DNA from: Eledone cirrhosa
Lineage: Eukaryota
NCBI GenBank assembly: GCA_964016885.1
Contig: OZ024748.1
Span: forward strand, 38,874,001-38,938,000
Reading direction: 5' to 3'
DNA: 64,000 bases
Below, one piece after another: positions 876 through 58,522 of this stretch; the first letter of the stretch is position 1, and each line of letters starts with the position of its first letter. A program made the position numbers and the translations under genes. Below the pieces are notes generated by a model that worked only from the letters and a program-made list of their open reading frames with translations, did not search any database and had not been told where the DNA came from.

Positions 876-1146
876 ATCAATAATATCAATAAATGGAAAA
901 TATATTTATAAAACCATATTTATAAAGATATATTCCATTTATCAATATTATTAACTTTGCCTTTCATCCTTACGGGGTCGATAAAATAAAGTACCAGTAA
1001 TACAGTGGGATAATTGCTGGCCTCGTGCCAAAAGTAGAAAAAATTATTGATATTAATGATACTCCGGATAAAAACTGATGAGTGCTTCTAATCTGTTGTA
1101 AGATTAACATTGTTGAATAATCAACAAATCAAATAACTCATTGTTT
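876..1146 (+). mobile_element. Fold-back cassette in (TA)n with ACTCC...GAGTGC tail, interrupted by a SINE
   Basis: ATCAATAATATCAATAAATGGAA..TTCCATTTATCAATATTATT[SINE]GATA is self-complementary. Same family as 16831-17250; the tail also recurs at ~35835-35920. Confidence 0.7.
951..1045 (+). mobile_element. 5'-truncated tRNA-derived SINE
   Basis: AACTTTGCCTTTCATCCTTACGGGGTCGATAAAATAAAGTACCAG...GTGCCAAAAGTAGAAA matches the 3' half of full copies such as 20927-21111. Confidence 0.9.
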
Positions 1147-1203
1147 ATATATATATATATATATATATATATATATATATATATATATATATATATATAT
1201 ATA

Positions 1204-1373
1204 TAGGAACGAGTAGGACACCGATGGCTGACTCAGTCCAGAATTAGCCGTCGAAACGGCTTGAGCTCAGCCTGCGGGGTCCTACTCGTTCCTATTACCC
1301 ACTCTACTACCCTAAGTATTGAGTACTTTGGTGCGTTATGGTCCATCTGGTTCCTTACCACTTTTCCTTCGTT
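1204..1373 (+). mobile_element. Fold-back cassette in (TA)n with tail; same family as 57278-57500
   Basis: TAGGAACGAGTAGGAC...GTCCTACTCGTTCCTA arms at 1204-1294, then a tail with ACTC (1301) and GAGTAC (1321), then (TA)n. Confidence 0.8.
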
Positions 1374-1454
1374 ATATATATATATATATATATATATATA
1401 TATATATATATATATATAAACCTATTTATCTATCTACCTATCAATCTATATCAG

Positions 1455-1697
1455 CCTGTAGGTTGAGGAAAAAGAGGAAGAGAGGAAAGGGGTACTCACT
1501 CTTCGTACTCCTGGAGATGAGGGTTGCACATTTTTTCGGGGGTATGTGTTACCCATATGTAATGTTTCCCCCTATTGGGGAAAATCGATTCATTTTAAAT
1601 TGCATTTGTGATAGTATTTTACACGTTTTTATTGTATGTAAACTTCCCCCTTTGTATTTGTCCCCTTCTTTTGTGCCCCTGTGGCTAATAAAGAAAC
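1455..1697 (+). mobile_element. Severely 5'-truncated Tx1-like LINE (stop codon plus 3' UTR only)
   Basis: CCTGTAGGTTGAGGAA matches the ORF end at ~28486, and GGGTTGCACATTTTTTCGGGGGT matches ~521-543. Ends GCCCCTGTGGCTAATAAAGAAAC, flanked by TATC repeats. Confidence 0.8.
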
Positions 1698-2119
1698 ATA
1701 TCTATCTATCTGGATGAATGGATGTATATATGGTGTCAGTGTTCTCTTTAAATACCGATTCTCGTGAGAGCCACGCCAAGAATTAGCAACATCCCATTCA
1801 TCAAGCCACAATGTCCACAATTGTTATTGTTTCTCTACTACTTCTGGTTGTTATTTGTACTTTTAACAGTAGAACATCCTTGCCCACCCCCACGGGACAT
1901 GCCAATATCTTCCAGAACTGCAAACCAGGGTGTCGGAAATATCTACCGCCGTCCCCCACCCTCCGATATATTTCCAATTTGCCCTAGGTCCTGGCAGGAA
2001 TAGGTTGACCTTTCTATACAAAATGTCACAGGTTGAGGGGTTATGGTGTGGGAGGGGTTGTCTAGGTAAGGGGTGGAACGGTAAGTACTGTCCTCGAAAA
2101 CAATGTTTAGTTTACGACA

Positions 2120-3305
2120 TATGTATGTATATATATATATATGTGTATATATATATATGTATATATATATATATATACATATATATATATATATATATAT
2201 ATATATATATATATATATATATATATATATATATATATATATATATATATGTGTGTATGTATGTATATATATGTATATATGTATATATATATATATATAT
2301 ATATATATATATATATGTATATATATATATATGTATATATATATGTATGTATATATATATATATGTATGTATATATATATATATGTATGTATAAATATAT
2401 ATGTATGTATAAATATATATATATATATGTATGTATGTATATATATATATATATGTATGTATGTATATATAAATATATATATGTATGTATGTATATATAT
2501 ATATATATATATATATGTATGTATGTATATATAAATATATATATATATATGTATGTATGTATGTATATATAAATATATATAAATGACTCTAAAAACAGGT
2601 TTGTCTGTGTGTTTACATACAGAATAGCTGGACACTCACAGTAAAGTGACCAGTGAAAAACTCGGTACATCTACATATGTATACGTGTATGTATTCATAT
2701 GCATACTAGTATTTCAGTATACATATGTGGATGTACATTTTTAACTTAATTGTTTATATATATATATATATATATGTATGTATGTATACATATATATATA
2801 TATATATATATATATATATAAATATATATATAAATATATATATAAATATATATATATATATATATATATATATTTGTGTGTGTGTGTGTGTGTGTATGTA
2901 TATACACATATATGTATGTATCTACGTATATATATGTAAATATATGCGTGTGTGTATATGTATATATGCGTGTGTGTAGAGCTGGTGGAAATTTCAATAA
3001 TCCTTGTGTGAATGAATATATTTATATATATGCATATATATATATTTATATATATATATATATATATATATATATATATATATATATATATATATATATA
3101 TATATATATTTATATATATATATATATATATATATTTATATATATTTATATATATATATATATTTATATATATTTATATATATATATATATATATATATA
3201 TATATATATATATATTTATATATATATATATATATATATATTTATATATATATATATATATATATATATATATATATATATATATTATATATATATATAT
3301 ATATA
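2120..3305. repeat. Compound (TA)n/(TATG)n microsatellite tracts
   Basis: Directly visible; source of the YI-repeat ORFs. Confidence 0.95.
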
Positions 3306-3945
3306 ATACATTATAAAGAAAGAAGAAACATTAGATATAATTAATAAGATATACCATACCCAAATTTCTTTATTACTCCTCGACTACATAGTTTCGTGGC
3401 ATATTGTGCAAAAACACTACATCACAGAGATGCAGTATTTTTGTGAGGTTTGCCGACTTATCAAGAGGATACCTCATTTAGAGTTTCAAAACACATCCGT
3501 AGGACGCGAGATGGAATCCCGAAAGGCGGAGGGGGAGTCAATCACGTGATACAGCGGTCAAGAAACAGAGCTAAGCCTCTTACAACCAAGAAAAAAATAC
3601 CACAAAGGCGGAGGGGGTACTTAGATCAAAGCCGTAGAAGAGATGGTTAGGATGGCCGAAGTTTGAGTAATGATAGCTTTCCAGCAGTCACTACACTTCA
3701 ATGGTGACTCTACCTTAGGGAGTTATAAACAATATAAAGAAATACACAGATACATGCGAACACATACATATACATGAATATATCCACATATATCCTTGAA
3801 TTGTATATATATATATATATATATATATATATATATAACTATATATATATATATATATAACTATATATATATATATATATATAACTATATATATATATAT
3901 ATATATATATATATATATATATATATATATATATATATATATATA

Positions 3946-4170
3946 TGCCTGTACGGCGTAATTCGGGCACTTTGTTTACAAACAAACCGAACATTATAAT
4001 AAATGTTCGGTAAACCCATACGTACATATATATATATGTGCATGTATATATATACATACTATTGTACGTCTGTATACATATATGTATGTACGTATACATA
4101 CATACTTACACTTAAGTATCAGCCGTACTAAGAGTGAGAAATGAAATTTCATTTCATTCTTTTCCATTTA
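3946..4170 (+). repeat. Dispersed repeat homologous to ~52630-52820 (probable Penelope-like element 3' tail)
   Basis: GTAATTCGGGC..TGTTTACAAACAAACCGAACATTATAATAAATGTTCGGTAAACCCATACG and GTATCAGCCGTACTAAGAGTGAGAAATGAAATTTC occur in both places. Confidence 0.75.
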
Positions 4171-56273: not shown

Positions 56274-56518
56274 TAAACTATATATATGTGTTTGTGTCTA
56301 TATTGTATCTGTATTATTTTTGACCGTTGGTCAGTCAATGGCAACATTGAGGTCCGAATAAATTAGATTACCGATATAAAAGACACAGAAGCGAAAAGCG
56401 AAAACCAACCAAACAGTGAGTGTGTTCTGTTATTAATTCTGGCAATATCACACAAATATGACCCTCCCCAAGTATAACAATATATATATATATATATATA
56501 TATATATATATATATATA

Positions 56519-56725
56519 TAAAATAAAGTAATTAAGTCAAATATTTAAGATTTGGCCTAGTTTATTAAAGATGTACATCTTTAATAAACGAAGCCAAATC
56601 TTAAATATTTGACTTAATTACTTTATTTTACATTACTCCGGAGTAACCAAACCAACCTGCGTACTTCGTCGAGTGCCCCAATCTGCACACTGAGGTGTCG
56701 GTAAACAACAAACATATACTAAAAA
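56519..56725 (+). mobile_element. Fold-back cassette (~56519-56630) with ACTCC...GAGTGC tail
   Basis: AAATAAAGTAATTAAGTCAAATATTTAAGATTTGGC..AAAGATGTACATCTTT..GCCAAATCTTAAATATTTGACTTAATTACTTTATTT; ACTCC at 56635, GAGTGC at 56671. Confidence 0.85.
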
Positions 56726-57113
56726 AAAAATATATATATATATATATATATATATATATATATATATATATATATATATATATATATATATTGGCAAGTT
56801 ATTTAGAACACTGGTTTAACCGCTTTACTTCCCTCCGAAGAAGAGATATTATCTCGAAAATTAAGGACATTTAAATAAATTTAAGGTGAAAGACTAATTG
56901 TCAACAATATCTTTTACATTTGCATTTTTATTCTATGTCCATACCTGCATTGTTTTGGCTTTACAAATACAAACGTTTATACCTCATTGCACAATGCTTC
57001 AAGTGAACTATAACTTCCTCCTATAAATATATATATATATATATATGTATGTCTCAAGGCTCTGATACCATCAACACCATAAACACAGAGCTGGCATATC
57101 TAAGAACTGACTA

Positions 57114-57169
57114 ACTGCCTGACGAGGTCATAGCCATTCAATGGCTATCATCGAAATATATATAGCAGT
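57114..57169 (+). ncRNA. Type I hammerhead ribozyme
   Basis: ACTGC-CTGACGA-GGTCATAGCCATTCAATGGCTATCATC-GAAA-TATATA-TA-GCAGT. Confidence 0.85.
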
Positions 57170-57277
57170 AAATAAAGGATTATGAGTTCATGCAATTGAC
57201 TTATGTTTCGTCACTATATATATATATATATATATATATATATATATATATATATATATATATATATATATATATAT

Positions 57278-57500
57278 AACGAAGGAAATGTGGTAAGGAA
57301 CCAGATGGACCATAACGCACCAAAGTACTCAATACTTAGGGTAGTAGAGTGGGTAATAGGAACCAGTAGGACCCCGACGGCTGAGCTCAAGCCGTTTCGA
57401 CGGCTAATTCTGGACGGAGAGTCCAGAATTCTGGACGCAGAGTCCAGAATTAGCCGTCGAAACGGCTTGAACTCAGCCGTCGGGGTCCTACTCGTTCCTA
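57278..57500 (-). mobile_element. Fold-back cassette (57357-57500) with left-side tail; family of 1204-1373
   Basis: TAGGAACCAGTAGGACCCCGACGGCTGAG../..CTCAGCCGTCGGGGTCCTACTCGTTCCTA; the tail is the reverse complement of 1295-1373. Confidence 0.88.
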
Positions 57501-58328
57501 TATATATATATATATGAAAGAACAAAGTCTAGGTGTTCCATAACAGATTTATTATATACTCTCTGCTCTGCATCGAGTACTGATTTTGGTACACACTAAC
57601 AGTTTTCTTCAGACTTACTGAATATTCTGCCTATATATATATATATATATATATATATATATATATATATATATATATGTATGTATGTATGTATGTATGT
57701 ATGTATGTATGTATGTATGTATATAAGTATATGTATGCATATATATATGTATGTATGTATATAAGTATATGTATGCATATATATATGTTTGTATGTATGT
57801 ATAAGAGAGAGGGGGGGGGTAAATTTGACCGCTCGTTTGTCTCGGATTGTTTCAGCTTCACATCTGAAAAGAGAGTAAATAACCCTGAAATATCATGTTA
57901 ATATACTGAGTAGAATCTTACTTTCTTTGTATATATATGGTGCCCAAACACTGATTTGTAAGACTTCGCCAGGTGGTGCTATTAAGTTAGACATGGCCTG
58001 GGCCAATACTGGCCGAAACCTATCAAAGTTATATATAATATATATATATATATATATATATATATATATATATATATATATATATATATATATATATATA
58101 TGGGCAGAAAATTGAGCAAGACACTTTATTTCACGTTGCTCCTTCTACCGGGAGTTTCGACCGGTAGATAGTATTAGCAATTGGAAAGACCAATAGAAAA
58201 ATTGTTTTCTCGGTCCGATTTGACGAAAGTCGATCGACTGTCGATATATATATATATATATATATATATATATATATATATATATATATATATTGATGTG
58301 TGTATATATATATATATATATATATATA

Positions 58329-58522
58329 TAAAATAAGAAGGAATAATAGACACAATAAATACCTTTTTTTTTTCTTCGTCCGACTGATAAGCTGGCTTAC
58401 CTCACAACAATGTTACATATCTATGATATAACATTTTTGCATAGTGACCAGCGAAACTGTACAGTCGGGACGAAGAAAAAAATAGCTATTTATTGTGTAT
58501 ATTATTCCTTCTTATTTTATAA
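58329..58522. repeat. Inverted repeat (~58-bp arms, ~75-nt spacer) next to (TA)n
   Basis: AAAATAAGAAGGAATAATA..TTCTTCGTCCCGACTG / CAGTCGGGACGAAGAA..TATTATTCCTTCTTATTTT. Confidence 0.8.

Follow-up and report, generated by a model that had tools for sequence, protein, structure and literature searches.

The fold-back cassettes of the window (the whole 64,000-nucleotide stretch of Eledone cirrhosa DNA analysed here) are probably heavily 5'-truncated 3' ends of Penelope-like elements (PLEs), inserted head to head into (TA)n, most plausibly by twin priming on one RNA. Their origins are mostly of Hydra-clade type, with one of Neptune type and two ORF-less tandem derivatives. A first-pass annotation of the window had read them as miniature products of PLE insertion and as a candidate palindromic retroelement system. 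We retain the former reading and do not regard the system as new: the literature already credits PLEs with (TA)n targeting, one-sided tails and 5'-truncated copies in inverted orientation, so the kind is known, and the cassettes represent the known Hydra (and Neptune) insertion pattern in miniature.

Results

All 13 fold-backs that had been annotated in the window are indeed self-complementary, with an arm complementarity of 74-98%. Masked self-BLAST of the window returned 11 of them as self-complementary matches with E = 1e-19 to 0, namely 8318-8694 (89%), 16235-16314 (90%), 16387-16597 (98%), 16837-17154 (96%), 18501-18590 (91%), 36070-36989 (87%), 38619-38781 (96%), 40611-40913 (98%), 56529-56620 (96%), 57361-57496 (91%) and 58338-58510 (75%). 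For 1204-1294 (74%) and 876-952 (81%) arm identity was computed separately and the folds were checked. Three shuffled windows contained no fold-backs; an inverted-repeat search of the window was swamped by TA runs. A TA run of at least 8 nt lies within 6 nt of all 14 cassette ends tested, compared to 6.6% of non-TA positions, and these ends thus abut (TA)n as had been claimed. Two 3' ends are fixed in every family: J, and T at the end of the tail (Table 1). One-sided tails, with one J and one T, are seen by inspection in 12 of the 13 cassettes; 39725-40913 has no tail because its inverted arm is cut off by the 3' end of another PLE. Tail lengths are 40-180 nt and not only 30-40 nt. Four inserts had to be redrawn: 876-1053 is not a single insert but an ~80-bp fold-back with a later SINE piece, the 16227 cassette is a fold-back with a SINE in its tail, 35928-37032 is a fold-back of a tandem unit, and 40612-40913 is merely the centre of a 1.2-kb insertion.

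Table 1. PLE-derived features of the window.
Feature	Position	Strand	Remarks
Family A-like cassette	876..1146	+	Fold-back 876-952, J left; SINE piece 951-1048; tail 1054-1146, T right
Family B cassette	1204..1372	+	J-ended inverted arm, sense arm, 78-nt tail with RCUC/GAGY stem-loop
Family D cassette	8236..8700	-	Fold-back 8312-8700; tail 8236-8311 carries motif
Family H cassette	16011..16322	-	Fold-back 16227-16322; SINE at about 16070-16209 splits tail
Family E cassette, Neptune-type parent	16375..16650	+	Fold ~J-124; motif-less 40-nt tail
Family A cassette	16831..17250	+	Fold-back 16831-17160; predicted minimal hammerhead 17063; 90-nt tail with motif
Family F cassette, young Hydra-type	18487..18740	+	Fold near predicted hammerhead cut; 134-nt tail, which is the 5' leader of the next unit
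Family I	35934..37038	-	Fold-back of ~540-bp ORF-less tandem unit; T left, J right; motif version GCUC/GAGC
Family C cassette	38613..38929	+	Fold-back 38615-38785; 145-nt tail with motif region; family sequence continues >1 kb upstream
Family K insertion, young Hydra-type	39725..40913	-	J 39725; predicted hammerhead 39828; fold ~40762; inverted arm ends after 150 bp
3' end and tail of the 54084..56479 PLE family	40914-41066		Second occurrence in window
5'-truncated Hydra-type PLE (44-kb element)	43992..50290	-	ORF 47373-49370; RT, CxCX5C linker, GIY-YIG-type EN; inverted arms ~0.9 kb; J at both ends
PLE with CX4CxxC linker (54-kb element)	54084..56479	+	One in-frame stop; J end
Family G cassette	56519..56729	+	Fold at predicted hammerhead cut (J-58 to J-61); 95-nt tail with motif
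Family B cassette	57279..57500	-	Tail 57279-57356; fold-back 57357-57500
Family M cassette	58329..58700	+	Fold-back 58329-58522; ~180-nt tail of ~590-bp ORF-less tandem unit

For 9 of the 13 cassettes a PLE-ORF parent exists elsewhere in the genome, eight being Hydra-clade-type (six families) and one Neptune-type, in support of the original PLE interpretation. Parents with RT and/or GIY-YIG are co-linear with seven cassette families: A (Hydra-type; loci L089, L078, L071, L125), B (L121, and L398 and L391 at 76-82%; endonuclease co-linear), D (endonuclease ~2 kb upstream, L287-L289), E (L215, L218, L204; RT, CX4CxxC linker, CCHH-type EN), F (full ORF in L294 and L297; RWK, DKT, CxCX5C), G (L390, L391) and K (co-linear PLE ORF; a young family with copies 99-100% identical over the query). 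For D and G the parent was recovered as the EN end only. The assignments rest on tblastn and on motifs shared with published proteins. The Hydra-clade motifs RWK and DKT (for DKG) are present in the full ORF of family F, the sole family in which this region was recovered. A CxCX5C linker, lack of CCHH, and CxxC and CxH around E/N characterize the 44-kb ORF, family A, the B relatives and K; the linker is also found in F and G, and D is Hydra-type by tblastn of its EN end only. The combination tested for Neptune and Nematis, a CX2-5CxxC linker with a CCHH EN, is found in family E and the 54-kb element. From the motifs we take family E to be Neptune rather than Nematis, and the 54-kb element with its CX4CxxC linker to be presumably Nematis-like. 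The annotated inverted-repeat PLE at 43800-50500 is a Hydra-type PLE, 5'-truncated; Naiad was ruled out by its C-terminal EN. Pfam on the window missed the 44-kb ORF and both GIY-YIG regions.

Among the loci retrieved, no parent ORF was found for families C and H, and PLE ORFs near their loci (L152/L193, L166, L175, L195) belong to other insertions; for I and M, tandem units of 540-590 bp, these loci likewise yielded no ORF-bearing parent. PLE hallmarks found are 5' truncation, partial tandems (pLTR), an inverted 5' copy and an optional tail, and in tandem copies the tail continues into the ORF start. (TA)n flanks 88 (left) and 83 (right) of 101 J/T insertions (best 30 loci per search), in agreement with the insertion preference of the Hydra clade.

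For the genome-wide comparison each search, with its hundreds to thousands of candidates, contributed the 30 loci of highest score, a non-random set. Arm-only queries gave 141 distinct loci (best 30 per search), 71 with an adjacent inverted arm and 70 solo copies, of which 36 end at J, 33 at T and 1 elsewhere. Of the 71 inverted loci 21 are unresolved; the 50 resolved (best 30 per search) comprise 46 J/T, one T/T, three T/partial tail and no J/J, an excess of J/T pairing over the at most 50% expected (p=2e-10). With tail-containing queries T/T occurs in 6 of 75 (best 30 per search). The Neptune-type family E follows the same rule (16 J/T among its resolved loci, best 30 per search). We found no published description of this pairing rule in the accessible portions of the literature. 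That outer ends are fixed and fold points variable, as proposed from the window, is borne out genome-wide, with the refinement that each family has its own hot spots for folding; the folds are concentrated at native inverted repeats.

Either arm can be the longer one. Among 101 J/T insertions (best 30 per search), 39 have a longer J arm and 22 a longer T arm, while 40 are equal within 10 nt; the excess of longer J arms is modest, with p=0.04, and in the arm-only sets (21 vs 11) p=0.11. The T arm is shorter than the tail in 7 of the 101, some of them beside J arms of 1.4-1.9 kb in family K. Because the tail-less J arm is longer in 39 of 101, a single fold-back hairpin is insufficient, and fold-back as the mechanism fails for these insertions. 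Minor alleles common to both arms number 54 against about 10 expected (56 loci, best 30 per search), an excess with p at most 0.003 in each of six families, and 27 private alleles are also common to both arms. Arms differ by 2-26%, with 237 arm-to-arm differences in the 56 loci. Junction overlaps of at least 4 nt occur in 24 of 63 cases vs 37 of 191 in the control (p=0.004; best 30 loci per search), and at the junctions of family B the A and T runs are unequal, 5 of 16 junctions having runs of at least 6.

In 11 families the tail begins with a bulged stem-loop, RCUC-hairpin-UN-GAGY, that shows covariation. The tails of C, H, I and M carry the same motif as the Hydra-type families. Owing to point changes, the exact motif is missing from the tail of the 876 cassette and from the reference tails of families C and M; it is present in 18 of 29 family C and 21 of 30 family M copies. 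The element is absent from Neptune- and Nematis-type families (0 of 27 copies in family E). The stem-loop call rests on covariation and not on minimum energy, because RNAfold on single tails often favours other folds. The accessible portions of published work contain no description of it that we could find. Minimal hammerheads, cited earlier as a PLE trait, are predicted by scan in families A, D, F, G and K, where they precede J by 48-61 nt; the scan gave none in B, I, M or the 44-kb family. In C, E and H predicted hammerheads were read by eye, and a search of family B for a hammerhead or HDV-like fold gave none. Over all arms, 15 of 134 folds lie at predicted hammerhead cuts (null 8, p=0.13); under a post hoc restriction to short arms it is 15 of 40 (null 4.3, p=0.002). 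An Rfam scan of the window gave sub-gathering miRNA-model matches to microsatellites and hairpins among the matches listed (150 of 477), and one over the family F end and tail gave no credible match.

Discussion

How could one RNA give two head-to-head arms with different 3' ends? We propose that the element endonuclease would cut both strands of the self-complementary (TA)n, and that one target end would prime reverse transcription at T and the other at J, which on this same read-through RNA lies 40-180 nt upstream of T, with a short UA-type match at each. If the T-primed cDNA passes J, the region would be copied twice, giving a palindrome with a one-sided tail; if it halts inside the tail, an L1-like inversion without duplication would result. 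The cDNA 3' ends would then be joined head to head via native inverted repeats, short overlaps or added A/T runs, and the shortest products may end at the hammerhead-cut RNA 5' end. The bulged stem-loop just 3' of J is a candidate site of protein binding in Hydra-type elements. In line with the proposal, the anole Poseidon protein, a predicted dimer, can cut and extend both strands and has two start sites that bound the tail (Frangieh et al., 2024; PMC11167929). In the same work the RNA used most in vitro was the uncleaved one, which counts against hammerhead-cut ends. The 44-kb J/J element and the T/T cases count against one-RNA twin priming, and need two RNAs or reuse of one site. One-sided deletions after insertion could be the source of shortened T arms, later gene conversion could account for shared alleles, and the 40 near-equal-arm insertions fit fold-back equally well.

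Those near-equal arms, 40 of 101, would also be expected if a single PLE cDNA (or an antisense template, as proposed for rotifer Penelopes) primed itself by fold-back and stopped at J, longer J arms arising by later one-sided deletions; self-priming is put forward in the available text of PMC3846280. The folds at native inverted repeats and the 27 private alleles common to both arms are in line with this. However, a hairpin limits the J arm to at most the length of the T arm, yet J is longer in 39 of 101; the T arm falls short of J in 7, including family K with its 99-100% identical copies, and unequal A and T runs at family B junctions are hard to obtain by snap-back. We therefore regard self-priming as unlikely. 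Arms of either length and the rare J/J and T/T cases would be accounted for by a dimeric RNP, for which the predicted Poseidon dimer (PMC11167929) is a precedent, with one RNA-bearing subunit fixed to J, the other to T, and the cDNAs joined. Minor and private alleles are, however, shared by the arms about five times above chance, so that both RNAs would need to come from the same locus, or conversion be frequent, which makes two RNAs a quite unlikely source.

Short, palindromic, TA-flanked inserts, four families of which (C, H, I and M) have no ORF parent, resemble ordinary MITEs or microsatellite-targeting DNA transposons such as MuTAnT, as far as the latter is described in the material available. 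But length varies, the outer ends alone are fixed and tails are one-sided; the co-linearity of seven families with PLE ORFs contradicts such an origin for 9 of 13 cassettes, and C, H, I and M carry the tail motif of Hydra-type families. Fixed length, symmetric TIRs or a transposase parent were not found, and this origin is very improbable. Practically negligible is the chance of assembly or library fold-back artefacts. In public runs, those with small word shares excluded, no read or contig was seen to span a whole window hairpin, and for the best runs no library type is recorded. Yet arms differ by 2-26% (237 differences in 56 loci), some cassettes harbour SINEs that have duplicated target sites, and the J and T ends typical of each family are found again on different chromosomes. 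Left- and right-arm positions are moreover joined, at other fold points, in contigs of runs X1, X2 and X5 (another organism).

The cassettes, and the twin priming proposed for them, share traits with several described systems. As in the Hydra-clade PLEs, including Hydra-1_Obim, in the available sections of Craig et al. (2021; PMC8557442), we find a C-terminal GIY-YIG-type EN, no CCHH, CxCX5C, RWK, DKT, CxxC and CxH around E/N, a (TA)n target, in some families a predicted hammerhead near the 3' end, an inverted 5'-truncated copy and a one-sided tail. Unlike in those sections, there are many more families here, 3' UTRs are longer (0.6-2 kb), tails are 76-180 nt, and very short palindromic products and ORF-less tandem derivatives occur. 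The family E parent resembles Neptune/Nematis PLEs in RT, CX4CxxC linker, CCHH-type EN and 40-nt tail; J/T pairing is common to it and the Hydra-type families, whereas RCUC/GAGY is missing. Poseidon PAc in vitro has two RT starts that bound the tail and an AT-rich target, as here, and there both target strands are cut and extended, as we propose (Frangieh et al., 2024; PMC11167929). In contrast, genomic copies here use the two sites one per arm, and the PAc stem-loop is AC-rich and inside the ORF while RCUC/GAGY lies in the tail; inverted copies are not addressed in the main text of that work. In L1 twin priming, too, each target strand primes a cDNA and the two are joined head to head through microhomology, but the second L1 primer uses variable internal sites, in about 20% of insertions, and the overlap is about 12 bp (PMC12016303), whereas our second site is fixed and overlaps of 50-1600 bp are common. 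Families I and M are similar to non-LTR retrozymes, ORF-less tandem units thought to be PLE-mobilised (bioRxiv 10.64898/2026.07.22.740005), but by our scans have no detectable hammerhead and a tail stem-loop instead.

How tandem arrangements, inverted copies and tails of PLEs come about is called unresolved in the available sections of PMC8557442, and the later steps are called unvalidated in PMC11167929. The young, high-copy families F and K give a quantitative rule: one J and one T, either arm longer, arms from one source. Together with the RNA element, this makes the unsolved integration mechanism testable in an in vitro assay of existing type. The RCUC/GAGY motif could also classify ORF-less repeats that automated annotation easily files as MITEs or unknowns. 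An unbiased 200-kb sample contained 19 fold-backs, 5 of which matched the family library; by rough extrapolation, 11-19 per 200 kb correspond to roughly 1.6-2.9 x 10^5 in the 3.0-Gb genome. If transcribed, the hairpins would be a large dsRNA source. The evidence leaves us evenly poised on a further step, a programmed two-primer integration of Hydra PLEs in which the stem-loop would set the protein so that the (TA)n ends start at J and T of one RNA, with RCUC-hairpin-UN-GAGY common to corals, sea cucumbers and this genome. If true, this single rule would account for the tail of PLEs and their inverted pLTR as well as for the miniature palindromes, hammerhead-cut RNA ends would set the shortest products, and the process would have the capacity to seed this genome with near-perfect hairpins numbering of the order of 10^5.

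Results

The palindromic inserts of the window, which has 32% GC and abundant (TA)n in a parent assembly of 3.0 Gb, are real fold-backs and additional members of the known insertion type of Penelope-like elements (PLEs). All those described in the first-pass annotation were recovered by self-BLAST once simple repeats had been masked, with weaker arm matches (74-81%) at 1204-1294 and 876-952, and shuffled windows gave none. Their described embedding in (TA)n was borne out, since 14 of 14 tested ends adjoin TA runs (6.6% by chance), as was the pairing of cassettes within families A and B. 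Two cassettes were redrawn: cassette 876 holds a fold-back (876-952) and is split by a later SINE insertion, and the hairpin at 40612, though real, forms only the middle part of a longer insertion, the inverted arm of which is cut short. The tail of cassette 16227 is likewise interrupted by a later SINE. Twenty arbitrarily placed 10-kb stretches contained 19 fold-backs, 11 of them TA-adjacent, at about half the density of the window; 5 of the 19 matched the families defined here by BLAST, and tails were visible by eye in several more. At most fetched loci, different PLE families are stacked side by side within the same TA arrays, and every PLE insertion seems to provide targets for subsequent ones.

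The proposed PLE origin was correct. Tracing long copies upstream, in 12 genome searches that each took the best 30 loci of 184-3038 first-look candidates (which are not copy numbers), led to co-linear PLE coding sequence in seven families (table). Family F has a complete ORF with RWK, DKT and CxCX5C, by which PMC8557442 (section 11) delimits the Hydra clade; a match to this type was also obtained for the ORF of the 44-kb element and for families A, B, D, G and K. In the family E parent the linker is CX4CxxC and the endonuclease of the CCHH type. In family F tandems nothing separates the tail from the ORF start that follows, which makes the tail the 5' leader of the downstream unit. Asn/Thr/His-rich low-complexity inserts, which resemble the Asn-rich inserts described in rotifer Penelopes, occur within the ORFs at 47373-49370 and of families F and K.

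Features of the window (cassettes named by start)
Position	Feature	Parent or content	Copies with tail motif
876, 16831	family A	co-linear PLE coding sequence upstream in long copies	70/103
1204, 57357	family B	as A	80/97
38615	family C	no ORF within loci fetched	18/29
8312	family D	as A	22/25
16375	family E	as A	0/27
18487	family F	as A	30/31
56519	family G	as A	30/35
16227	family H	no ORF within loci fetched	21/26
35928	family I	ORF-less tandem unit, about 540 bp	20/27
40612	family K	as A	25/25
58329	family M	ORF-less tandem unit, about 590 bp	21/30
43992-50290 (-)	44-kb element	ORF 47373-49370	present in family's tail, by eye
54084-56479 (+)	54-kb family	PLE	absent
53088-53244, 57047-57214	inverted pair, 97%, 3.8 kb apart	minimal hammerhead in each	
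31100-31302, 35690-35810, 35824-35921, 53262-53560, 57516-57632, 8730-8883	short 3' ends, PLE-like and flanked by TA runs, new here	hammerhead in 8730-8883	most
25935-28491	L1/Tx1-type LINE, frameshifted	RT matches	
1-800, about 1450-1720	3' ends related to this LINE		
951-1048, 13755-14414, 16070-16209, 20920-21110, 24134-24514, 58700-59095, others	abundant SINE-like repeat, ~190 bp		

The outer ends are fixed, as had been proposed: every family has two alternative termini, J and the tail end T, both of them fixed 3' ends. For families A-G and K we mapped 270 loci onto real long copies; 12 of these, which were repeat views of a locus or near-identical duplicates, and one more that lacked an anchor were dropped, and the window's own copies were kept. 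Arm-only queries (141 loci) gave 46 J/T, one T/T, three T/partial tail and no J/J insertions, with 21 unresolved and 70 solo ends (36 J, 33 T, one other); tail-containing queries (116 loci) gave 55 J/T, six T/T, one partial, 13 unresolved and 41 solo. The 44-kb element, which is J/J, is a counterexample. Among the 101 J/T insertions, TA runs flank 88 on the left and 83 on the right; 39 have a longer J arm, 22 a longer T arm, and 40 are within 10 nt of equal. In seven, the tail exceeds the T arm in length.

A few bases past J begins a predicted bulged stem-loop, in which RCUC and GAGY enclose a variable hairpin followed by a 2-nt UN bulge. This motif occurs in Hydra-type families and in those for which no ORF parent was found (table), with a compensated GCUC/GAGC version in family I and part of the M copies. 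Shuffled tails carried it in 3 of 5500 cases; the window has 11 matches (0-2 in ten shuffles) and the twenty 10-kb stretches 13 (three in shuffles). In an alignment of nine instances from the window, part of them belonging to related families, the proportion of paired cells is 98.6% and the inner stem shows 11 two-sided changes; the structure was picked by the analyst, so the controls are lenient. Among published consensi inspected by eye, Hydra-2_Amil, Hydra-1_Ajap and Hydra-2_Ajap carry the motif and Hydra-1_Crog a variant, while Hydra-1_Amil and Hydra-1_Obim have no clear motif. Two successive copies, in the tail and just past T, were seen at loci L311 and L303 (family M) and at the published Hydra-1_Ajap 5' end.

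Fold hot spots coincide with native inverted repeats. Family B folds about 60 nt upstream of J, where A and T runs of unequal length are frequent (5/16). Hammerheads lie 48-61 nt upstream of J in families A, D, F, G and K, and the predicted cut equals the fold point in three window cassettes. Folds cluster there among short arms, a post hoc subset (15/40, p=0.002); over all arms clustering is not significant (15/134, p=0.13).

At least three further PLE pieces separate the members of the inverted pair at 53088-53244 and 57047-57214, which is likely a single head-to-head insertion split by nesting in a central TA run. AT-rich arms and tails of PLEs receive insertions of the SINE-like repeat, which duplicates its target and is tandem in places.

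Discussion

An assembly or library fold-back artefact is very unlikely: the hairpin arms have diverged, SINEs are located within cassettes, and contigs of runs X1, X2 and X5 join left to right arm at other fold points. X1 and X2, of unrecorded library type, may be the assembly's own sample, and no piece in the public runs compared spans a whole window hairpin. Among biological explanations, self-priming by a single hairpin, as outlined in PMC3846280, predicts that the J arm never exceeds the T arm, and hence misses the 39 insertions with a longer J arm, unless arms are often shortened by one-sided deletion. Priming twice, once at J and once at T, would account for every arm-length class. Of 63 insert-free junctions, 24 have overlaps of at least 4 nt, compared with 37 of 191 among controls. 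Arm-to-arm differences amount to 237 sites in 56 loci, and minor alleles common to both arms (54 observed, about 10 expected) point to a single source RNA for both arms or to later conversion.

Two primings would agree with the in vitro system of PMC11167929, in which two start sites flank the tail and both strands are cut and extended; the supplement of that paper contains an RNA fold. The scheme also resembles L1 twin priming (PMC12016303), from which it differs by a fixed second site and by overlap between the copied regions. Junctions at five loci (L086, L046, L100, L131, L136) contain SINE pieces, unassigned sequence or internal re-folds, suggesting template jumps while the two cDNA ends are joined. 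Neither the pairing of J with T nor twin priming by PLEs nor the tail motif was described in the literature searched, which thinly covered subscription papers and Repbase reports, and prior notice is possible. The value of these observations lies in an end-pairing rule and a conserved stem-loop, which make the open mechanism of PLE integration testable.
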